64,000 nucleotides of DNA. Source: Escherichia coli (GTDB taxonomy: Bacteria; Pseudomonadota; Gammaproteobacteria; Enterobacterales; Enterobacteriaceae). Location: the NCBI GenBank assembly GCA_025336685.1, contig GCA_025336685.1_4717.1; one strand, given 5' to 3'. The notes below the pieces were generated by a model, which searched no databases, had not been told where the DNA came from, and was given only the letters and a program-made list of their open reading frames with translations. The position numbers and the translations under genes were made by a program. This document shows, piece by piece, positions 2,547-55,750 of the stretch (position 1 is its first letter; the number at the start of each line of letters is the position of its first letter).

Positions 2547-2577
2547 CATTTATGCCGTCGTTCGTTGGCTTAGCACA

Positions 2578-7182: not shown

Positions 7183-7200
7183 GGTAATATAAGCGTGAAT
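7183..7200 (-). promoter_or_regulatory. phage promoter, minus-strand core TATATTAC with extended consensus (attcacgCTTATATTACC)
   Basis: Plus-strand gtaatata at 7184-7191. One of five sites sharing ttcaSg-N-YTATATTACC with an A/T-rich upstream flank, all upstream of minus-strand genes. Core matches the early promoter element reported for phiKZ-like phages. Confidence 0.6.
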
Positions 7201-12459: not shown

Positions 12460-12477
12460 AGTAATATAGCCGTGAAA
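12460..12477 (-). promoter_or_regulatory. phage promoter, minus-strand tttcacgGCTATATTACT
   Basis: Plus-strand gtaatata at 12461-12468, about 94 nt upstream of the 11903-12367 start; matches the extended consensus. Confidence 0.6.
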
Positions 12478-14257: not shown

Positions 14258-15669
14258 CTTCAGTTTAATTTGGTCGAACGTATTCCAATTTCAATCCATG
14301 CCAATCACCGCCTTTACTAATAGCGGTACTTATCGTAGTCGGATGCACTTTATGTTCTTCAGCAAGGGCGAATCTATCAGGATAGACTTTATGTGTACCA
14401 TCCTCAAACACCACCTTTACTGGGAACCTTTGTAATCCACCAGTTTTTGGTCTAGGCTCTTTAGGAATATATTTACATTCGTTCACATCGCCAGGATAAT
14501 TCCTTGTCCACCATGCTTTCCAACCGTTTCTGGAAAACATCTTATCTCCATGACATAAGCTATGACTTAATGTCGCATAGCTCACTCCCACCATTGTTGC
14601 CGCCATTACGGTACTTTCCATGTGATACTTGTCTCCATCGGGCGATATTAAAACCAACCCGCCGTAAATAACATACGACTTACCGGCATCTTCGGATGTG
14701 AAACCGACAAATTCCATTCCGTGGGTAGCCGCATCGTAATATTTCATCAACGGCCATTGTCGTGTAGTACGGAACCATTTTGAAATCTGGGTGTGTGGGA
14801 TACCGTAACACTTAGCCGCATCGCGCATACTGTAATGTTCGGTTATCTCGCCAGTTCTCAAATCCTTTATCCATACTGTTTTAGCTTTCCAGTTCAAGCC
14901 CGTACGATAGGCATGGTACGTATTTTGGGATTGACTCGTCCATTCAAGATTATCCAAGCGGTTGTTATCTTTAACTCCGTCAAGATGGTTACCTACTAAC
15001 ATTGATCCCTCAGGCAGCATAGGTTTTTCACGAAAGGTGGATAAAACAACATGATGAGCTGCTATATCTCTACCTTCATGTCTGACCCTTACATATCCTA
15101 ATACGTTAGTTTTTCCTACTTCCTCTCCAGTATAGGCATCTATAATGACACCCTCCACAGAAGCGGCAAGTCCGGGATAATCTTTACAATGGTAAAATCC
15201 TGGGAATTTTGTCTCTCTAAGTTTCATCTTCTCTCCGCTATCGGCCAACAGAGAGAAAACGTTCCTCGGAGGCCGACGTTTTCAAATTAAACTACGTTAT
15301 CGACTATATCTTCATCCTCATTGCGAGGAGTCTCCCGTTTGGGTCTGTGTTTAACAGAGCCTACTCTACTCGACATCGCGTCTTTCGATAGTCTGTGAGC
15401 ACACATCTTAACGAACATTCGTGGACTCCTAAACAGGTGAACATTCTTGTTAAGATGCTTCGCTGCGGGTTATTCCCGTCCTACCTCTTTTACCATACCC
15501 AGTTCATTACGCTGGCCCTCATCTATGTCGCCACGATGAGTTGGTGTGTAGTCCGATTACAGAAACTTCCCGTCAATTAGAGAGTTTTAACTATGTTCCT
15601 GTTACCAGAAACCCGACTCCGATGATATCAATAAATCAACGTAAGTTATTGATTTAATTGAAGAAACTG
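14258..15669 (-). mobile_element. group I intron (about 1.4 kb) with HNH endonuclease ORF in its 3' part, interrupting the beta-prime-like gene
   Basis: Minus-strand core elements: P/Q-like GGACGGGAATAACCCGCAGCG (plus 15461-15482), R-like GCTCACAGACTATCG (plus 15386-15399), S-like AAGATATAGTCG (plus 15301-15312). The 5' exon ends in U, the intron ends in G, and splicing yields a perfect NADFDGD. Confidence 0.75.
14265..15248 (-). CDS. intron-encoded HNH homing endonuclease
   Basis: HNH motif HHVVLSTF...VGNHLDGVKDNNRLDNLEWTSQSQN plus helix-turn-helix-like repeats (YGIPHTQISKWF, MVGVSYATLSHSL); sits inside the intron; TTG start with an in-frame ATG 7 codons downstream. Confidence 0.85.
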   Translation of the reverse strand: MADSGEKMKLRETKFPGFYHCKDYPGLAASVEGVIIDAYTGEEVGKTNVLGYVRVRHEGRDIAAHHVVLSTFREKPMLPEGSMLVGNHLDGVKDNNRLDNLEWTSQSQNTYHAYRTGLNWKAKTVWIKDLRTGEITEHYSMRDAAKCYGIPHTQISKWFRTTRQWPLMKYYDAATHGMEFVGFTSEDAGKSYVIYGGLVLISPDGDKYHMESTVMAATMVGVSYATLSHSLCHGDKMFSRNGWKAWWTRNYPGDVNECKYIPKEPRPKTGGLQRFPVKVVFEDGTHKVYPDRFALAEEHKVHPTTISTAISKGGDWHGLKLEYVRPN

Positions 15670-17017: not shown

Positions 17018-18913
17018 TTAGAACAGGTTGAATGCCCCACCCATGTTGTTACCGCCAACATTCGGACGATCGCTACGTGCATAGATGTTGCCGGAGATGT
17101 TACCCAGACCACGAGCACGTGCTGCTGTGTTACCACGAACAGCGGTACCTGCCAGATGCTGGATGTTCTCAGGACGGATGGTGAAGCCAGCTTCGGCAGC
17201 CGCTTCAATCAATGCCGCAAGCGCATTCGGTTCGAAATCGTAACGCATTGCCCAACCGGTTTGTTCCCAGCTACCAGACAGAACGCGATCGATGATTTCG
17301 TGACGAGCAACAACACGCTGAGACATCGACATATCGGTACGGTCGAAGCTGTCTTCCCAAGCTTCTACGGTATCCGGGTTAGTGATGTTCATCATGTACA
17401 GATCGTCCATATCACGAATATCGTGACGGTGGCCATCCTGGTGGTTGTAGTGACCCAGCGGGATACGGTTACCGGTAGCGTACACTAACGGCTGGCCGTA
17501 TTGATATTTCTTGCTGAAGCAACCCAGGGTGGTATCATCGAATGCACGATAGAGTGCTTTATAGCCTTCGGAGATTTCTTGAACTTTACCGTCAACGTTG
17601 CCCGTAAAGATCTTCTCAGCTGCAGGGATCATACGCAGCAACCAGCTATATTCACCTTCTTCCGGTACATCGATAGAAATCAGCAGAGACGGATACAGTA
17701 CCTGTTGCAGGAACTTGTAAATCTGCTCGTTGGTTTGAGTAGACAGATCCAGCGGTGCGGTAACTTCCGGATCCAGTACCATTGCCAGAGCACCCGGGTT
17801 ATGAGGACCGATGCCACGAGCAGCGTTGCTGATTAAAGACTGTGCCCACGCCATACCGCTGTTCAGCGTAGCGATGGTACCAATCAGACCTAACACGAAA
17901 GTGTTCGGAGTGAACGCATCCAGCTCCAGCGGGTAAGCGCTGGTCATCACGTAACGCGGCTGGTATTGTACAGTCGGCGGTACCGGATAACCGTTAACCA
18001 GAACAGGACCTTGGTTGAAGGTCGGGTTCTGCGGGCTGTAGGTCAGGTCAATGTAACCAGTGGTTGCGACCAGGCGCTGTTGACTATCGTAATCGCTCAT
18101 CGCTTGACGGATACGGTTAGAGATAGTTACAGTGATGTCAGAACGTACTGGGTTACCGACGATATCGCTGTCCTGCATACCGCTGGTGTTGTACTGAACG
18201 CTGCTGATCGGCTGATCGCTTGCCATCATGCCCAGGTTGAACTGCGGCAGGCCCAGTTTATCGCCGAGACGGATTTCGATCGCGGTTTGGATTGCGTTAT
18301 CTGCAGCAGACAACAGGGTGGTTGCCAGATGTGCAGATTCAGCGGTGATTTCATTGGTCACCACAGCCAGACCGGCGATACGAACAGTACCATTAGCCTT
18401 ACCACCAATAGCCGCATACATTGCCGCCATGACTTCGTTGATGAACGTGCCGTTCAGGTTATCAACCCAGGTACGTGGTACCAGAATGTTACCATGCGGA
18501 CCTTGTTCTTCACGACGCGGCAGCGGAGCCAAACCGGCAACCAGCGGAAGCACATAACCGAAGAAGTGGTTATGGTCACCAACTTTTGCACCGCTCATAA
18601 CAACCAGGGTCGGATACGGTACACTGTACTGGTTAGGATCGACGGTCACCATGATGAAGTCGTCTTTGAATCCTTTATCTTCCAGTTCTTTTTCCATCAG
18701 ACGGCGGAGATTCAGTACCTGCTCGGAGCCAGTATTACGGCTAATACGACGGCTCAGTGTACGGTTGATCGTACGCATCGTATGAGTTACTTTAGGCTGG
18801 CCAGCAAAATCTGCAGCGGTTTCCAGCGCCTCATCAGCACGTTGTGCGGTGCGGGTTTCAGCTGCACGAATTTCTACATTATCGTTACCGTTATTACGTA
18901 CGTCTAAGCCCAT
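17018..18913 (-). CDS. chmA: candidate phage nucleus shell protein (chimallin-like), 631 aa; alternative: major virion protein
   Basis: Size typical of chimallin; stand-alone gene bracketed by a TATATTAC promoter (73 nt upstream) and a strong hairpin; flexible N-terminal region and G/N-rich C-terminal tail ending ...GGNNMGGAFNLF; PhuZ present in the same genome. No direct sequence confirmation. Confidence 0.4.
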   Translation of the reverse strand: MGLDVRNNGNDNVEIRAAETRTAQRADEALETAADFAGQPKVTHTMRTINRTLSRRISRNTGSEQVLNLRRLMEKELEDKGFKDDFIMVTVDPNQYSVPYPTLVVMSGAKVGDHNHFFGYVLPLVAGLAPLPRREEQGPHGNILVPRTWVDNLNGTFINEVMAAMYAAIGGKANGTVRIAGLAVVTNEITAESAHLATTLLSAADNAIQTAIEIRLGDKLGLPQFNLGMMASDQPISSVQYNTSGMQDSDIVGNPVRSDITVTISNRIRQAMSDYDSQQRLVATTGYIDLTYSPQNPTFNQGPVLVNGYPVPPTVQYQPRYVMTSAYPLELDAFTPNTFVLGLIGTIATLNSGMAWAQSLISNAARGIGPHNPGALAMVLDPEVTAPLDLSTQTNEQIYKFLQQVLYPSLLISIDVPEEGEYSWLLRMIPAAEKIFTGNVDGKVQEISEGYKALYRAFDDTTLGCFSKKYQYGQPLVYATGNRIPLGHYNHQDGHRHDIRDMDDLYMMNITNPDTVEAWEDSFDRTDMSMSQRVVARHEIIDRVLSGSWEQTGWAMRYDFEPNALAALIEAAAEAGFTIRPENIQHLAGTAVRGNTAARARGLGNISGNIYARSDRPNVGGNNMGGAFNLF

Positions 18914-18984
18914 TTGGGATTCCTCTTTTCTTAACCTTTATTAAATGACGTCATTGAATCAGCTTCTACTCGCTCATTCACCTA

Positions 18985-19002
18985 GGTAATATAACCCTGA
19001 AA
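18985..19002 (-). promoter_or_regulatory. phage promoter, minus-strand tttcaggGTTATATTACC
   Basis: Plus-strand gtaatata at 18986-18993, about 73 nt upstream of the 17018-18913 start; matches the extended consensus. Confidence 0.6.
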
Positions 19003-19167
19003 TTTTTTTCAATATTGGTGTAACCGCATTGAACGATATAAACCCCTAGGCGAACGCTGCCGAGAAGCAACATTCTTTCTACATATAATCAGGATATGTC
19101 TGTAAACTTTTACTTCTCTTATTGAGAGTAATGTCATATCCGTTTACCATCTTCTTACGGAGTTCGT

Positions 19168-20328: not shown

Positions 20329-22482
20329 TTATTCTGCGGTTTCTTGCTTCGGTAAATAACTTGCTGCGATGTCTTGGGCCAACAATGTATTGTTTTTATT
20401 CGAGATGAAAATACCGTAACTTTCCATTAACGCATAATACGAACGAACGAGCGTAGAGATCAGTCGACGAATATCCATACCTTGAATAAAGATATCAGGA
20501 AGCCCGGAGGCTTCGATCACCGGTAATGGTATCGTTAAGTTGCTTATCGTTTTCTTATCGTTACGTACAATCCAATCACGGAAACGTTGTTGTAACCCTT
20601 TATCCTCCCATGAATCAATCCAATCATTAAGAAGCGTTTTGTTCTTCGTCGCCAGCGGTACACGAACCCCAACATAAGGCGGTTCAGAGCAATGGCCGTA
20701 CGATTGAGCAAACACCTCTTCCCACATATCGTAAGACTGTTTCGTTACTGCAACATGTGGTTTCACTTTAACACGTGTTAAGAAATCGGGGTCACCTCGT
20801 TTCATTGACTCAACGATTTCGTTTTCTAACGAGATGATATCATCAAGAACCAATCGAATACTGATCTTCTCGTTACGTAACAGCTTATCCATGATACCAC
20901 ACATCATCCGCTCAACACGTTGGACGATCATCTTCGGCGCTGATGCGTCGCGCATAACAGGGCCTTTCAATTCCAGCTTCGGTGGATTGATAGGAACCCC
21001 TTCACGCATGGTCATGTATCCGTAATAGTTTTTACCCATCGAGGTTAACGACAGGATTAAGAACATATATTCGTTCTTCATCTCCATTACGTACATATGC
21101 TCTTTCGCTACACCGATATTACCAGAACACATCGCCATCAGATGAACCGTAATCTGCGTAACCAGATAGATAAGCGTGTTTGCTAAGCGCGTCGAAATTG
21201 GATTGATCTCCATATTTCCAAATCGCCACTGAACCCACTCCTGGCAGGTAAACACCGTCGAGTCGGTATCAGACAACACACCCACTTCACGGATTGCCGA
21301 CGGAAAAGCATAAACGCCTGCCGGTTGGTTCTCGGTACGCCATAACGCCTTAATTAAATCAGCGTAGCTTTGGATGCGTTGCAGCATTAATTTTGTCGTT
21401 GCTGCAGTAAGACGATAACCGAGTTCATTTCCTTTTTCTAGCGCTACGTAAATCGCTTCCCCGTTCAAGAACTCCGTGCATTGTGCTGTAATCCAAGCTA
21501 CCGTGTTGTTATCCATGGAAGCAATAATGGCTTTAGCCTCTTCCATCGTTTCAACAGGTTCGGATGCCAGTTCACATAACGAGTCAAGAAAATCTCGAAC
21601 AAATTCAGGATTAAGCTCACGTAACGAGTACAGGTTATTGCTGTACATGTAGCAGGCACGTTCCAACGGCGTTAAACCGGTAATTAGCTCCCGGATGGTC
21701 AGCTCTTTCTCTGGGTCGAAAGTATACCGATGTAAGCATTTCGATACGTTAGCCCAAACCTCTTCCGGCGTAGGGTAATGCAGTTTGTATTTTACCATTA
21801 CCTGCTCAATGGCTTTACGATCGCTGTTACGGACAATACTCACGATGTTTTCAATTGCGATATCACAATCGTAATAATGGAAATTACCCGCAAGGAAGCG
21901 TTCGTTGTTCGCATTGGCTGAACCTGAAGCACAGCGACATGTTGTCGTTAGACTCGGATGCGCGATCGGATTGTAAAATGGGTTAAACTTGGACGCTTGG
22001 GTTCCTGACAAGCTGTTGTTATCTAACTTGGTGTTGGTTTGTCGTTTATCGTGTAACTCAGCTTCGTCTTTACGTCCGTGAGCTTGCGCTATCGACATTT
22101 GTTTCTTCTGTTTCTTACGCAACTTACCGTTTTCAACCGCAAAGTCGCTTAGCACACTGGAACGTGTTTCACGTGGATAACAGTTAGCCCATACCGGCGT
22201 GATAATTAAATTATTTTCTTTAATATCGTTGAAGTATTGGCTGAACTTGATGACTTCTTTTTCTCGGTTTCCTTCAGTACGCTGTGTTAGTACAAGGCAG
22301 TCGGGATCAACCATCCCGTATTTTCCACCAGGACTAACCGTATCAAGAACAAACTGCAACGCTTCCTGCTGAGAAATCCCACGCATGCGCATTAAGAACA
22401 GGGTATAATCCTGTACCGCTTCTTTGGTCATATCCAACGTACGGCCATATCCGTTTTCATCGTAAAAGAACGGATTTTCCAT
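20329..22482 (-). CDS. hypothetical protein (717 aa); weak polymerase-like motifs
   Basis: Long ORF containing GVLSDTDS and YDMWEEVFAQSYG, which loosely resemble nucleotidyltransferase / RNAP beta region I motifs; not sufficient for assignment. Confidence 0.5.
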   Translation of the reverse strand: MENPFFYDENGYGRTLDMTKEAVQDYTLFLMRMRGISQQEALQFVLDTVSPGGKYGMVDPDCLVLTQRTEGNREKEVIKFSQYFNDIKENNLIITPVWANCYPRETRSSVLSDFAVENGKLRKKQKKQMSIAQAHGRKDEAELHDKRQTNTKLDNNSLSGTQASKFNPFYNPIAHPSLTTTCRCASGSANANNERFLAGNFHYYDCDIAIENIVSIVRNSDRKAIEQVMVKYKLHYPTPEEVWANVSKCLHRYTFDPEKELTIRELITGLTPLERACYMYSNNLYSLRELNPEFVRDFLDSLCELASEPVETMEEAKAIIASMDNNTVAWITAQCTEFLNGEAIYVALEKGNELGYRLTAATTKLMLQRIQSYADLIKALWRTENQPAGVYAFPSAIREVGVLSDTDSTVFTCQEWVQWRFGNMEINPISTRLANTLIYLVTQITVHLMAMCSGNIGVAKEHMYVMEMKNEYMFLILSLTSMGKNYYGYMTMREGVPINPPKLELKGPVMRDASAPKMIVQRVERMMCGIMDKLLRNEKISIRLVLDDIISLENEIVESMKRGDPDFLTRVKVKPHVAVTKQSYDMWEEVFAQSYGHCSEPPYVGVRVPLATKNKTLLNDWIDSWEDKGLQQRFRDWIVRNDKKTISNLTIPLPVIEASGLPDIFIQGMDIRRLISTLVRSYYALMESYGIFISNKNNTLLAQDIAASYLPKQETAE

Positions 22483-22557
22483 AAATCCTCCAAAAGTTAT
22501 TTAGTCTGTCTACATCATCTCGTATATCTGTTAAAAAAGAAGGACGGCATAAAAAGA

Positions 22558-22583
22558 ACCGATCCAGCCGAAGCCAGATCGGT
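22558..22583 (-). terminator. hairpin ACCGATC-N12-GATCGGT followed on the minus strand by a T-tract
   Basis: Minus strand reads ACCGATCTGGCTTCGGCTGGATCGGTTCTTTTTATG, a rho-independent-terminator-like structure in the 300-bp intergenic region. Confidence 0.4.
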
Positions 22584-22638
22584 TTAAAGGATAATAACTG
22601 ACTGAAAGATATCGATGATGTTCGTGAAACAAGATCTT

Positions 22639-22687
22639 CTCTCGTGTTACAATGATGCCAGATCAGAGGGAGGTTGTAACACGAGAG
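22639..22687. other. long stem-loop (14-bp perfect stem, 21-nt loop) in intergenic region
   Basis: CTCTCGTGTTACAA...TTGTAACACGAGAG inverted repeat read directly; sits between the promoter-proximal end of the 20329-22482 gene and the 22781-23194 stop. Confidence 0.45.
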
Positions 22688-22780
22688 ATGGTTCGCCAAA
22701 GAAGGAATAAAAAACACGAACCTATCTTATTTCACTGATGGCACTAACCACTCAAAATATATAGTACCGTATGTAAAAGT

Positions 22781-23194
22781 TTACTGATTAATCAAGTCGT
22801 TAGCAACAATCTTGGTGTAACCCGCCTGATTAAGAATTTGATTAATTTTTGTCATGTCGGTCGCATCCTCGATAACGATGCTAGGTTTATAGATCAGCGT
22901 CTTGGTAACGACGATCGTGCTCTCCTTAATCCAAGGAATCCCTAAAATCACATACTCACCATCAGCTGTGATGACCTCGACGTAATTGTACTTCGTCGGA
23001 TCGTTCGGTACACTCGACGGGAGCCGGGAATAAATCTGTTGGTGAATGGCGTCCACATCGCGGCCGTTACGTACGGCGGTACGATAATTGTACACCGCGC
23101 TAATTTCTACTCCGTTGAAGTTAACCCCAAGTTCTGGGGCGTACACATCAAAACTCACAACAGAGCCAATCTTTTCTAAATCAGAAGCTGGCAT
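22781..23194 (-). CDS. hypothetical protein (137 aa)
   Basis: ORF; no motif recognised. Confidence 0.45.
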   Translation of the reverse strand: MPASDLEKIGSVVSFDVYAPELGVNFNGVEISAVYNYRTAVRNGRDVDAIHQQIYSRLPSSVPNDPTKYNYVEVITADGEYVILGIPWIKESTIVVTKTLIYKPSIVIEDATDMTKINQILNQAGYTKIVANDLINQ

Positions 23195-26258: not shown

Positions 26259-26558
26259 TCATTTTCTCCCTCTTCGAATACCACCGATACCTCTTCGATC
26301 CAAGACGTCCCAAGCACGCTTTATTTCTTCCTCCCGTTCCTGATTCCAATCGTTAAATCGTTTTCTTATTTTATCCCACCACTCTCCCATGCTTTCTCCT
26401 ACACGGCATAAAAGCCTGCCCCGAAGGACAGGCTCGATAGAACTTAATAACCATCCAATTTCAATGAAGGATGGTTGACGATATGTGCGTGTTTTGCTGG
26501 GTCGTATGGTTGATATGGAAAATAACCATGCCACTGACGACCTTGGCATTTCGTACAT
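26259..26558 (-). CDS. hypothetical small protein (99 aa)
   Basis: ORF; overlaps 26444-26644, so only one of the two may be real. Confidence 0.25.
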   Translation of the reverse strand: MYEMPRSSVAWLFSISTIRPSKTRTYRQPSFIEIGWLLSSIEPVLRGRLLCRVGESMGEWWDKIRKRFNDWNQEREEEIKRAWDVLDRRGIGGIRRGRK

Positions 26559-30615: not shown

Positions 30616-31630
30616 TGTTCATTTTCTCCATTGCTACAAATCGTTCAAGTTCACGTAATAAACGCTCTTTTAAAGCAGGATCAACTTCCGGAGCATGTTT
30701 ATCACGATACCATTCGGTCCCGTTGTATTGCAGGCTAACATGCCATGTTCCTAACGGGCTTTCCTCTGCAGCGGCGATGAAATTCTTAACGCCGGTTTTG
30801 GTAGGATACTCCATGATAGGAACAGCCTGCTTCGGATCCATTACGGTAAGATCCTGGAAGTTATAATCCAGGAGTGTTAACGCGCGTTTGTCGCGTAACA
30901 GTAATCCGCAATCCAAGATAGTGAAATCAATACCCCAGAAACGTAACTTACCTCCAACCCCAACAGGGGTATGGCCACGATAAACCGCGAGATAAATCTC
31001 ACCTTTATCGGTTTCTTTGTTGTATCCTGCAATGAAAGCAGCCGTAATTAATGGCTGGTGTCCTTTCGCTAAGAAGACAGGGTGGTTATGATACAACCAG
31101 TCACTACGAATCAGATCGGTAACCTGACCTAAACGTGCTGTTGGTACCATCACCGATCCCAGAGTTTCATCAACAGGAACCTGGTAATATTCAAACAGAA
31201 CACCATCGATTTCTTCGGTAGCGTAAGGCGTACGTGTGGGATCGTTAAGAAGTTTACGGAGTTTTGTGTCGATTTCGTTAACACGGCTACCCTGTTCTTT
31301 CTCGCGGCTACCGATAACAAAAGCAACAAGATTACGTACGCTAACAAAAACATCATCTTTCTCGGTGTCGCTGAGATCAGCCTCATCCGGCATCGTTGTC
31401 CAATGTAACGGACCTTCAACGACCTTAAGCCATCTATCTTCACGTCCCGGATAAATAAAAGGCTTATGTACAGGAACACTGGTATGCTGAACCCGTAATA
31501 ACAGATTACATAACGATGGCAATGTTTTCTCCAGAGGAGGAACAATACCTGATGTAACGGAAATAACGTAACGATTAAGAACAAGAGAAGCTGAATAGGT
31601 GATGTTATCTAATCCTGGTAATTGATCCAT
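30593..31630 (-). CDS. hypothetical protein (345 aa)
   Basis: ORF preceded by a 300-bp AT-rich intergenic region. Confidence 0.5.
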   Translation of the reverse strand: MDQLPGLDNITYSASLVLNRYVISVTSGIVPPLEKTLPSLCNLLLRVQHTSVPVHKPFIYPGREDRWLKVVEGPLHWTTMPDEADLSDTEKDDVFVSVRNLVAFVIGSREKEQGSRVNEIDTKLRKLLNDPTRTPYATEEIDGVLFEYYQVPVDETLGSVMVPTARLGQVTDLIRSDWLYHNHPVFLAKGHQPLITAAFIAGYNKETDKGEIYLAVYRGHTPVGVGGKLRFWGIDFTILDCGLLLRDKRALTLLDYNFQDLTVMDPKQAVPIMEYPTKTGVKNFIAAAEESPLGTWHVSLQYNGTEWYRDKHAPEVDPALKERLLRELERFVAMEKMNNDVNDEQ

Positions 31631-31885
31631 GATAAGAATCCTTAGTATGTTTGATATGTTGTTTAATTGACATATTAAGTTTAAAAGAGGTTATGTTTTA
31701 CGTATTGTTAATAACGTATTCTTATTTCTATTAGGTTATGTTCTATCTAAAGATAGTAAACAGATATAATGCTCCCCACCTCCCCATTCTCCCAAGTAAT
31801 ACTGGCCTACCGGCCCTCTCCTTTTTAAGGGAGAGAGTAAGCATTCAGTATTGCTCAAATGAATAAGCAAAACAGTATAAACTTA

Positions 31886-31909
31886 CCGTCTCGGGATAAC
31901 TCGAGACGG
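31886..31909 (-). terminator. hairpin CCGTCTCG-loop-CGAGACGG with T-rich tail on the minus strand
   Basis: 8-bp inverted repeat downstream of the 31935-32288 stop. Confidence 0.4.
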
Positions 31910-31934
31910 CGTAGTATCTGTTTATCTCTTTATG

Positions 31935-34770: not shown

Positions 34771-34911
34771 CAATGTAACAGTAAAACTTTACTGATGTTG
34801 GTTATTATTTGAAGCATAGGGCTTCACCCAGGAGTACCATCCCTGTAAGTCGTTTGTCCTCTCCTGGTTAACTGTCGTTCTCTCACAGTGCTCGACAGAC
34901 CAAAAATGCTC

Positions 34912-34940
34912 AAGCCTCATAGCCTCCTCTGGGAATGGAA
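34912..34940. terminator. hairpin CCTCCTCTGGG-loop-CCCAGAGGAGG followed by a T-rich tract (between convergent genes)
   Basis: 11-bp inverted repeat; the listed ORF 34789-35055 overlapping it is probably spurious. Confidence 0.55.
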
Positions 34941-34963
34941 CCCAGAGGAGGACTATGTTTGCT

Positions 34964-35284
34964 TTAAAATTCAATGCGACCCTTAGTTGTAAACAATACA
35001 CCTCTTTGCCAACAGAAAAGATCCTCCGATTGAGCGCAAACACGAATACCCGCATCGAATAGATGTTTTGTTCTGGCGCTTAAACAATCTGGATCTTCTA
35101 CATACAACAGAAGACGTTGGCATTTATTTTGAATGCGTTCGACAAGGATGTTCTTATCGCTTAAAATAAAATGCGCGTTATCTGTTAAGTTGTCGTCGGT
35201 TTCCAGCTGCCCGACAAGTTTGATTAAAATACGTAATTGCTCAAGTGTGTCATGATCAAATGAATCGCCCATGGCGTACCTCAA
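34964..35284 (-). CDS. hypothetical protein (106 aa)
   Basis: ORF downstream of the terminase gene. Confidence 0.4.
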   Translation of the reverse strand: MRYAMGDSFDHDTLEQLRILIKLVGQLETDDNLTDNAHFILSDKNILVERIQNKCQRLLLYVEDPDCLSARTKHLFDAGIRVCAQSEDLFCWQRGVLFTTKGRIEF

Positions 35285-47749: not shown

Positions 47750-47767
47750 GGTAATATAGACCTCAAC
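47750..47767 (-). promoter_or_regulatory. phage promoter, minus-strand gttgaggTCTATATTACC
   Basis: Plus-strand gtaatata at 47751-47758; matches the extended consensus. Confidence 0.6.
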
Positions 47768-48560: not shown

Positions 48561-48663
48561 CTTTTAAATTCCTACTTAACAATAAAGTTTATATACGGCG
48601 TATGTATCCGTAGAATAATGAGTTCTGGTAAGATCTTACATCAAAATGACGGCATAAAAAGTA

Positions 48664-51173: not shown

Positions 51174-52697
51174 TTACACCTCGCTAATCTGGATAACGTA
51201 AAGCTGTTGGGCCACGTAATCGGTGGTCAGATGCATTGTTGCGATGGTCGCAGCTTCGAATACCGTGAGTTCAGGACGTTCACGCATAATCAAATCGATC
51301 TCGTCGATGAGACGGTTAACGCCTTGAGCGTCTTCATGATGCATGGTTTTCACGTACAGTGTGCGGAAATACTGCTGGAAGTTAGCTACGTCGGTATCGG
51401 TAAGAGTAGCAACTTCACCACGCACAATTTCCATAACCTTCTTACGGGTATCTTCATCGAGGTCCACCGTAATCAGGTCAGCAAATACACCCTGCAATGC
51501 CAACGCGTATGCACGTAAGCGGTTTGCGGCTTGCTGGCTGGCTTTCATGTTGATGTAGTTACGGTAATGCTGCATGAAGCCAGCACCGTTAGCCAACAGT
51601 TCGTCTTTACTGATGAGTTCGCGTTCTAACAGGACGGCTGCGGTTAGTGCTTCCGGTGAACCGCCTTCTTGCAGATAACCCATGTAGACATCCGCATTAA
51701 CGAAAATCGTCATCGTTGATGCGTCTTCAGCACGTTGAATCTGAGAAGCTGATGGTGCAGAAAGAATCAGCTCACCACGCTCCATACGCAGGATACGATC
51801 ACGACCGACGCGTGCCATCCCATTGATCGCCGCAGCACGAGCTTGTTGCATTTTAGCGCGGTAGTTTTCAAGCATCATGTCGTTGCCGTCCTGGATATCT
51901 TCCAGCAGGTTAACGGCCCACATGTAGCAGAGGAATGCAGGAGTTGCCGCAGCGCGCGAACCATGGAATGCAACGTTGTCGCTATCCGGATACGTAATCA
52001 GATAAGCGGTGGTGTTCGAAGAAGGAGCGGAGCCACGGAAGAAATAGTTGTAGATGTCTTCCAGTGCCTGATCGCTCATCCCTTCCGTCGCTTGCTGCAC
52101 AAAACGATCCAGGTTTTCATTACCAGTATACAGCAACGTACGCAGCTTATCACCGGTGATAAACGCAAGCTTTTCGGTTGGGGTGAAATCGTTATTAATC
52201 GAAATCAAGCCGTTGAGATCGTAATCGCCAACTAAGGCCTGGTACTCTTCGGAGTTATAAAACTCAGGATAGTAACTCAGACTTACCGTCGGGATCAGTT
52301 TCGGGGCCAGGATGATCGAATCGATACGTTTTTCCAGTTCCGGGTACAGCGCACGGCATTTCGGCAGGATGGTATTACGTGCCAACTCTTTGGCATACAC
52401 CACTTTTTCCACCACGTCTTGAACTGCGGTCTGTAAAACTTCATCGTGGATATAAACCTCGCGTTCGCTGGCAGGTGCTACAGCGCCATCTTCGGTTTCA
52501 TCAAGTGTTTCAGCAACAACCATACGTTCAGCACTAAGCTGCACCAACGCATCCGCATCTTCCGGCGGCTGGTTCCAATGCATGGTTTCACAAACCGCGG
52601 CTAACGGGGTACCTGGAATGGCTGCGACGATTTGGTTACGTTTGATAAACCCTTCGACAATGGGCTCAACGGCATAAACGGTTTTATTGGTGATCAT
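51174..52697 (-). CDS. hypothetical protein (507 aa)
   Basis: ORF; tightly packed with neighbours. Confidence 0.5.
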   Translation of the reverse strand: MITNKTVYAVEPIVEGFIKRNQIVAAIPGTPLAAVCETMHWNQPPEDADALVQLSAERMVVAETLDETEDGAVAPASEREVYIHDEVLQTAVQDVVEKVVYAKELARNTILPKCRALYPELEKRIDSIILAPKLIPTVSLSYYPEFYNSEEYQALVGDYDLNGLISINNDFTPTEKLAFITGDKLRTLLYTGNENLDRFVQQATEGMSDQALEDIYNYFFRGSAPSSNTTAYLITYPDSDNVAFHGSRAAATPAFLCYMWAVNLLEDIQDGNDMMLENYRAKMQQARAAAINGMARVGRDRILRMERGELILSAPSASQIQRAEDASTMTIFVNADVYMGYLQEGGSPEALTAAVLLERELISKDELLANGAGFMQHYRNYINMKASQQAANRLRAYALALQGVFADLITVDLDEDTRKKVMEIVRGEVATLTDTDVANFQQYFRTLYVKTMHHEDAQGVNRLIDEIDLIMRERPELTVFEAATIATMHLTTDYVAQQLYVIQISEV

Positions 52698-55735: not shown

Positions 55736-55750
55736 CGTAATATAGCCTTA
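55736..55750 (-). promoter_or_regulatory. phage promoter, minus-strand attaaggCTATATTACG, inside the putative intron upstream of the HNH ORF
   Basis: Plus-strand gtaatata at 55737-55744, about 42 nt upstream of the HNH start. Confidence 0.55.

Follow-up and report, generated by a model that had tools for sequence, protein, structure and literature searches.

We examined the gap at 22483-22780 of a 64,000-nucleotide (nt) stretch of DNA filed under Escherichia coli (assembly GCA_025336685.1, contig GCA_025336685.1_4717.1; hereafter the window). With moderate confidence, we read this gap as a transcribed, non-coding leader unit of a Goslar-like DNA polymerase gene, ending at a phiKZ-type terminator. 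The 501 bases around the gap are 96.6% identical to Escherichia phage vB_EcoM_Goslar and, judged by sequence, the source of the window is a close relative of this nucleus-forming jumbo phage (Chimalliviridae). Nearby in Goslar, genes are annotated for subunits of the phage RNA polymerase, for the PhuZ tubulin, and for the nuclear shell protein. The gap is flanked by the gene for an SH3DP protein (upstream) and that for a divergent family-B DNA polymerase (divDNApol, downstream). Since both are read on the minus strand, we analysed the gap in the minus-strand sense. An original prediction, made from the letters alone, had reported here a long stem-loop and a separate terminator-like hairpin, and had proposed a structured RNA, a processing site, or a protein-binding operator.

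The evidence consists of an RNA fold and its strand-specific maintenance, strong purifying selection on the gap, an intrinsic terminator, a promoter-like motif with further copies in the genome, and the same layout in relatives. In the mechanism that we propose, a middle-type promoter lying over the SH3DP stop codon (GTAAACTTTTAC, with TTTG about 20 nt on) would start transcription and, together with read-through from the upstream operon, would give an RNA of about 200 nt. The core of this RNA would fold as a three-way junction, with the reported stem-loop, of 15 base pairs (bp), as its largest arm. A phiKZ-type intrinsic terminator, about 60-100 nt before the polymerase start, would then stop most polymerases. 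Termination would release a short structured RNA, and read-through, or re-initiation at the TATG in the terminator tail, would produce the polymerase mRNA. Such a leader unit could set the amount of polymerase message and yield a small RNA derived from the untranslated region at the 5' end (5'UTR), as mapped in phiKZ and 201phi2-1.

Fold of the minus-strand RNA and its variation among strains

The gap had been described as free of open reading frames (ORFs). Frames of 86, 33, and 31 amino acids are listed for it, and insertions or deletions of 1 nt interrupt all of these among close strains; they are therefore not coding, and the description holds. The gap is AT-rich (38% GC vs 46.7% for the whole window). 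An ARAGORN scan found no tRNA or tmRNA. The covariance-model scan suggested in the original prediction, run on the region against Rfam 15 at E <= 10, assigned no family: the best matches reached 11-16 bits (E = 2.5-9.6), compared with gathering scores of 45-86. Applied at the gathering score to the whole window, Rfam gave a sole match, a group I intron outside the gap.

Folded on the minus strand (331 nt), the gap scored z = -5.2. Its core is a three-way junction RNA with a minimum free energy (MFE) of -44.7 kcal/mol when folded alone (z = -7.7), and the MFE structure accounts for 42% of the ensemble. The plus-strand fold of the junction is weaker (z = -6.3). We compared nine strains, namely the window and eight Goslar-like genomes taken from GenBank, IMG/VR, and metagenomes. 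Junction and terminator were predicted separately in each of the nine, and the RNAalifold consensus agrees. The long stem and the terminator are separate elements, as originally proposed, with the junction followed by a linker and then by the terminator. The structured-RNA option is likewise supported: the junction is a stable minus-strand fold, is predicted in all nine strains, and its stem substitutions retain pairing. Within the linker, the stretch CGAACATCATCGATATCTTTC is invariant among the strains; downstream of it, the linker of strain L018 has an insertion of 19 nt.

The reported inverted repeat forms the third and largest arm of the junction, hairpin 2. The long perfect repeat is present, at 15 bp rather than the 14 first given: its arms, TCTCTCGTGTTACAA and TTGTAACACGAGAGA (22638-22652 and 22674-22688), are 100% complementary and 21 nt apart. 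It is the longest perfect short-spacer inverted repeat in the window, and when the window was shuffled 100 times with dinucleotides preserved, 15 bp was reached only once. The perfect stem occurs in only three of the nine strains. In the other six, the 3' arm is short of one A; a bulged U results in five of these, and further changes in L018 remove the bulge. On a neighbour-joining tree of the locus, L018, L020, and L019, all with the deletion, fall outside the other strains. The bulged, imperfect helix appears to be the ancestral state, and the perfect stem is, as far as the sequences tell, a derived, strain-level improvement of an older helix through an A inserted opposite the bulge. Internal changes in hairpin 2 keep the helix: a C-to-U change in L002 and an A-to-G change in L017 yield G·U pairs, and those of L018 are paired. 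The hairpin 2 loop is nearly invariant among the nine strains. A search of IMG/VR with the exact repeat pattern gave no match, the loop pattern retrieved Goslar-like contigs only, and BLAST against E. coli genomes returned no match.

Across the named structure, 97.6% of the pair cells in the nine strains hold standard pairs. Broken pairs are mainly the two terminal pairs of hairpin 2, the remainder being one L018 cell in which deletions shift the alignment. Among the changes are one GC-to-AU double change, in hairpin 1, and eight further pair types, all of them pairing; in addition, two G·U pairs become Watson-Crick pairs among the strains. Where an internal Watson-Crick stem pair changed on one side only, the result was in every case a G·U pair in the minus-strand RNA: hairpin 1 shows GC-to-GU and UA-to-UG, hairpin 2 CG-to-UG and UA-to-UG, and the small 5' hairpin UA-to-UG. 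In DNA, or in a plus-strand RNA, each of these G·U pairs would become an A·C mismatch, and selection therefore appears to act on the minus-strand transcript.

The same changes bear on whether the repeat works as DNA, whether as a cruciform, an operator, or a replication origin beside the polymerase gene. The AT-richness of the gap, the long perfect palindrome in this strain, and the palindromic GTAAANNTTTAC would suit such a role. However, the stem G·U pairs of L002, L016, L017, L018, and L019 would be mismatched in DNA as well as on the plus strand, and the 1-nt deletion found in one arm in six of the nine strains leaves the arms asymmetric. Moreover, the stem sequence is single-copy, with no iterons, and the cumulative GC skew has no turning point. 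We consider a DNA-level element highly improbable, and the protein-binding operator of the original prediction fits poorly, given the A·C mismatches that the strain variants would create in DNA.

Diversity at third codon positions, among the nine strains, was 0.174 in the SH3DP gene and 0.160 in the polymerase gene. Diversity in the gap is far lower (Table 1), and the whole non-coding gap is therefore under purifying selection. This constraint also bears on the possibility that the junction is neutral and functionless, left behind either by an inserted mobile element with inverted repeats at its ends or by a local duplication of the terminator region. The closing stem P1 does resemble a pair of 12-bp terminal inverted repeats enclosing an insert of 88 nt, parts of the junction are similar to the terminator region (repeats D1 and D6), and relatives have unrelated sequence of similar length. 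Yet the junction varies at about a third of the synonymous rate, its substitutions preserve the helices, and no second copy turned up, whether in the genome, in E. coli genomes, or in IMG/VR beyond Goslar-like contigs; nor did a covariance model of the junction detect one in the window or in the whole Goslar genome. A neutral origin thus seems to us very remote.

Table 1 Features of the leader and of related loci (window coordinates unless a phage is named), with diversity (pi) among nine strains
Feature	Position	Strand	pi	Remarks
Divergent family-B DNA polymerase (divDNApol) gene	20329-22482	-		PF20286, E = 1.7e-203
SH3DP protein gene	22781-23194	-		PF20287; SH3DP accompanies this polymerase
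Whole gap	22483-22780	-	0.040	about 4x more conserved than synonymous sites
Promoter-like motif		-	0.038	two elements, next two lines
Palindromic upstream element	22773-22784	-		GTAAACTTTTAC (minus-strand reading); overlaps SH3DP TAA stop (22781-22783)
Initiator-like element	22751-22763	-		TATATATTTTGAG; predicted start = G at 22753, 20 nt past TTTAC
Three-way junction RNA, whole	22624-22735	-	0.059	112 nt; independent folds of nine strains and RNAalifold; about 1/3 of synonymous rate
Closing stem P1	22724-22735 / 22624-22635	-	0.009 (arms)	12 bp; part of junction
Hairpin 1	22716-22722 / 22690-22696	-	0.072	7 bp, pyrimidine-rich 19-nt loop; part of junction
Hairpin 2 (reported inverted repeat)	22638-22688	-	0.093 (stem arms); 0.034 (loop)	15-bp stem, 21-nt C/U-rich loop CCUCCCUCUGAUCUGGCAUCA
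Linker	22585-22623	-	0.042	39 nt, predicted single-stranded; between junction and terminator
Intrinsic terminator	22544-22584	-	0.017 (terminator and tail)	hairpin 22557-22584 (12 pairs, 2 G·U; UUCG loop); tail CTTTTTATGCCGT 22544-22556
Proximal polymerase 5' leader	22483-22543	-	0.027 (polymerase 5'UTR)	pyrimidine tract CCTTCTTTTTT 22533-22543; Shine-Dalgarno GGAGG 22487-22491; ATG 22480-22482
Further copies of tail TTTATGCCGT	2549-2558	+		
	26403-26412	-		matches Goslar site directly after hairpin
	48649-48658	-		matches Goslar site directly after hairpin
	52669-52678	-		
Early promoter cores TATATTAC	55737-55744, 47751-47758, 18986-18993, 12461-12468, 7184-7191	-		all intergenic
Hairpin and long pyrimidine tract 60-100 nt before divergent family-B polymerase start	L026 16378-16578 (phiKZ); L013 3885-4068 (PhiPA3); L014 3906-4030 (Ea35-70); L015 3921-4030 (SURPRISE13)			all chimalliviruses examined

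Terminator and promoter-like motif

The minus-strand hairpin with a T-tract that had been noticed in the gap was recovered by a terminator scan of that strand, with the T-tract given as CTTTTTATGC / CTTTTTAT; Goslar's annotation likewise marks a terminator at this site, and the element is almost invariant in the nine strains. The tail TTTATGCCGT at 22544-22553 fits YTTATKYYGT, the sequence that accompanies a hairpin in the consensus of 61 phiKZ terminators (PMC10914365). Hairpin and tail thus fit the phiKZ type, whereas the stem differs from the phiKZ CCYCCCC...GGGRRGG, so that the tail alone is shared in sequence. Tails of the form TTTATGCYGT occur five times in the window, compared with 0.34 expected, and a search of Goslar for TTTTATG[CT][CT]GT returned five sites, each directly after a hairpin. 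The tail also contains TATG (22548-22551), the core of phiKZ late promoters.

At the other end of the gap stands the promoter-like motif. Its core, GTAAANNTTTAC, has three copies in the window (0.08 expected) and five in the 237-kb Goslar genome, all intergenic. The core is invariant in the nine strains, and only three spacer columns of the motif vary. In phiKZ, middle promoters carry an element AAanTTACc centred near -24, and late and middle transcripts start at T-A-T-G(+1) (PMC4666361). The TTAC-containing upstream element ACTTTTACA at 22772-22780 resembles that of phiKZ. Of the five Goslar copies, four have a (T/A)TG 19-21 nt past TTTAC, as do a variant copy, GTAAGTTTAT, and the copies in L005 and L006, two more distant relatives discussed below; the Goslar copy at 81201 has no such downstream element. 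We infer that the motif is a middle-type phage promoter, with a predicted start at the G at 22753. From there to the T-tract at about 22550, the RNA would measure about 200 nt, below 250 nt, on the same strand as the polymerase gene and upstream of it. For the Goslar group, GTAAANNTTTAC followed by (T/A)TG 19-21 nt on would serve as a usable definition of a middle-type promoter.

Two other kinds of promoter were tried for the gap and rejected. Matches to a sigma-70 promoter did not exceed their frequency in shuffles, and chimalliviruses use no host RNA polymerase. Exact copies of the phiKZ-type early-promoter core TATATTAC stand at five intergenic sites elsewhere in the window and at none in the gap; the gap sequence TATATATT, considered as an early promoter, has three mismatches to this core, which is exact at all five real sites. 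Each copy of TATATTAC in the window is preceded by a T-rich stretch resembling ...TTCA(C/G)GG, and most have GTG 4 nt downstream.

Copies of the middle-type motif elsewhere were observed in other settings. Before the gene for the shell protein chimallin (17018-18913, minus strand), the gap 18914-19167 contains, at 19102-19113, GTAAAAGTTTAC, then 20 nt and TATG. The chimallin gene thus has a middle-type motif and an early TATATTAC promoter in tandem, an arrangement that suggests expression in two phases. In Goslar (L009), an exact GTAAAAGTTTAC lies at about 31201-31211, right after the stop of gp068, a DNA polymerase exonuclease-domain gene and the second polymerase-related gene; it precedes gp069, a NUMOD1/HNH (homing-endonuclease-like) gene, and no downstream TTTG or TATG is evident there.

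Two further gaps in the window carry the motif. In the convergent gap 34771-34963, an element at 34781-34968 (plus strand) has the motif GTAAANNTTTAC ... TTATTATTTG without a downstream gene. Here, a structured RNA of about 150 nt (z = -4.3) ends in a strong hairpin, possibly a bidirectional terminator, and we regard the element as a candidate stand-alone small RNA gene. The second AT-rich gap, of 304 nt (31631-31934, minus strand), has the variant motif GTAAGTTTAT ... TTATTCATTTGAG at about 31854-31885, followed by a weakly structured RNA (z = -2.1) with no clear terminator seen.

The locus in other chimalliviruses

A protein search identified intermediate lineages, L005 and L006, whose polymerases are 64% and 58% identical, respectively, to the one studied here (L006 and L007 are identical, so that the pair adds nothing on variation). 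The gap is again about 300 nt long in the two lineages (303 and 312 nt), and a terminator hairpin occupies the same position with another sequence; the T-tract and TATG-containing tail that follow it are similar to those of Goslar. Directly after the SH3DP stop, they read TTTAC, about 10 nt, and then T(T)AT..ATTTGAG, the TTTAC core being kept where the rest of the gap cannot be aligned. Their central 150 nt are unalignable yet strongly structured (z = -4.2 and -4.1).

Further away, the orthologous loci of phiKZ (gp049-gp050) and PhiPA3 (gp046-gp047) show the same order as here: the SH3DP gene, TTTTAC, 19 nt, (T/A)ATG, a leader, a hairpin with a pyrimidine tract, and the polymerase gene. In PhiPA3, the upstream part reads AAAGTTTTACC, 16 nt, then TATG, and in phiKZ, ATTTTTACT, 16 nt, then AATG. 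The leaders differ in length. Before the hairpin, the phiKZ and PhiPA3 leader has about 35-55 nt and no three-way junction, whereas that of the Goslar-like clade, with L005 and L006, has about 170 nt. In addition, phiKZ and PhiPA3 have an extra terminator directly after the SH3DP stop, which the Goslar-like phages lack. Ea35-70 and SURPRISE13 retain the hairpin and pyrimidine tract alone. The recurrence of these two elements in every chimallivirus examined (Table 1) suggests a family-wide control element for the polymerase gene.

Conservation of the inverted repeat in related phages had been named as a test of its importance, and the outcome is mixed. The helix persists among close relatives, and the promoter-leader-terminator layout is kept. 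The exact repeat, however, is degraded in most close relatives and absent in distant ones, and the stem sequence is already not conserved in the next relatives, those with polymerases 58-64% identical.

Several observations weigh against reading the gap as a transcribed leader unit. The covariance model of the junction matches nothing in the 58-64% relatives or in other chimalliviruses; as the junction has no detectable homologue elsewhere, its particular shape is a species-level trait. Covariation was not significant in a shuffle control because the strains differ too little (by at most 11%), and we take it as supportive, not proven. The stem arms of hairpin 2 are the least constrained part of the gap, still under the synonymous level. 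The initiator here is TTTG (ATTTTGAG) and not the TATG of phiKZ, the other Goslar copies having either TTTG or TATG. A literature search found no transcript, start-site, or 3'-end data for Goslar-like phages, so that the promoter, the RNA ends, and the terminator efficiency are predictions. Finally, between the SH3DP stop and the motif, Goslar-like phages lack a terminator; the leader RNA therefore doubles as the 3'UTR of the upstream operon and could strictly do without an independent promoter.

This last point leads to the rival that we take most seriously, while still thinking it unlikely: that the gap is a 3'UTR or spacer of the PhuZ-to-SH3DP operon, in which the junction would serve RNA stability or processing by RNase III or RNase E, the motif would be no promoter, and polymerase transcription would start at the TATG after the terminator. 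The lack of a terminator separating the SH3DP stop from the leader, unlike in phiKZ and PhiPA3, agrees with this, as does the TATG in the terminator tail, which is the phiKZ late-promoter core. P1 and hairpin 2, stacked end to end, would reach about 27 bp, enough in principle for RNase III. In the early region of phage T7, sites for this enzyme are helices of some 20 bp or more, marked by a characteristic internal loop, and many of them lie between cistrons along the genome. The Goslar-like structure is similarly a long imperfect hairpin between cistrons of a phage polycistronic RNA; unlike the T7 sites, it is a single arm of 13-15 bp inside a junction. Against an operon 3'UTR stands the motif. 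It is conserved where the flanking non-coding sequence is not, recurs between genes only, with a fixed spacing to (T/A)TG, and matches a promoter at the same place in phiKZ and PhiPA3. Furthermore, one copy lies in a convergent gap where the strand in question has no gene upstream, a setting more in keeping with a promoter than with a 3'UTR signal.

A known class of units and possible regulatory roles

A leader unit of the kind we propose would have counterparts in the family. Nanopore-based cappable sequencing (ONT-cappable-seq) of phiKZ and 201phi2-1 revealed many 5'UTR units in which a terminator lies less than 250 nt past a promoter (PMC10914365, PMC11512511). These units give abundant short RNAs with some read-through, and two were confirmed by northern blot; examples are T102 upstream of PHIKZ221 and TU237 upstream of PHIKZ302 in phiKZ, and sRNA005 in 201phi2-1 (PMC10914365, PMC11512511). 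The Goslar-like unit shares with them the virus family, a phage promoter, a structured RNA below 250 nt, an intrinsic terminator before the gene, and the terminator motif. It differs from the examples in that it precedes a DNA polymerase gene, in that its junction has no sequence relative among them, and in being a prediction from sequence. It is best filed under this known chimallivirus class of promoter-leader-terminator units, as a member with an unusually long and well-folded leader; most likely, it is a genuine regulatory element, though a fairly ordinary one in this virus family.

The timing and dosing of replication genes in nucleus-forming jumbo phages are poorly understood; middle promoters in these phages have only a weak definition, and short 5'UTR RNAs are many. 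The locus offers a compact, strongly constrained example before a DNA polymerase gene, and Goslar grows on E. coli and is genetically tractable. If the leader merely marks the end of an operon, its description amounts to routine annotation.

A further-reaching reading, which we consider distinctly improbable, is that the leader is a working regulatory RNA, either an attenuator whose junction senses a phage protein or metabolite and gates transcription of the polymerase gene, or a small RNA acting in trans. In the latter form, once the RNA had left the phage nucleus, the invariant C-rich apical loop (CCUCCCUC) and the conserved single-stranded linker might base-pair with phage or host mRNAs at their ribosome-binding sites.

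More doubtful by itself is the leader as a sensing attenuator, riboswitch-like or bound by a protein (for example, the polymerase or SH3DP), that alters read-through or translation of the polymerase. Phage T4 and its relative RB69 provide the model: their family-B DNA polymerase, the product of gene 43, represses its own mRNA by binding a small hairpin over the ribosome-binding site, which is a translational control. As in that operator, an RNA hairpin and an adjacent single-stranded tract lie in the leader of a phage family-B polymerase. Unlike the T4 operator, the structures here are located 100-250 nt upstream and are coupled to a terminator.

The order of structured domain, terminator, and gene is the classic layout of an attenuator and stands before the polymerase gene across the Chimalliviridae. 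The hairpin 2 loop contains CUGAUCUGGC, which can pair with the 3' arm of the terminator (dG -15.0, p = 0.034 vs shuffles); both loop substitutions found among strains keep this pairing, and the pyrimidine tract of the polymerase 5'UTR recurs in the loop of hairpin 1 (repeat D1). However, no Rfam riboswitch matched, and the junction is not conserved beyond the species. The loop-terminator pairing was found post hoc and is absent in L005, L006, and PhiPA3 (p = 0.7-0.9), and pairing with a terminator 3' arm makes a kinetically poor antiterminator; we regard it as a weak lead. Pairing of the leader with the ribosome-binding site did not surpass that in shuffles (p = 0.25), and L018 has lost it. 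On these figures we also rejected an anti-Shine-Dalgarno role for the linker, which the minimum-energy fold pairs with the polymerase ribosome-binding site; L005, L006, and PhiPA3 were unremarkable in this respect.

Elsewhere in the window, the group I intron (Rfam RF00028, 50.3 bits) lies at 15281-15660 on the minus strand, and the same intron is annotated in Goslar. It adjoins an ORF at 14265-15248 (minus strand), the positional counterpart of the Goslar HNH endonuclease, by the gene for a beta subunit of the phage RNA polymerase.

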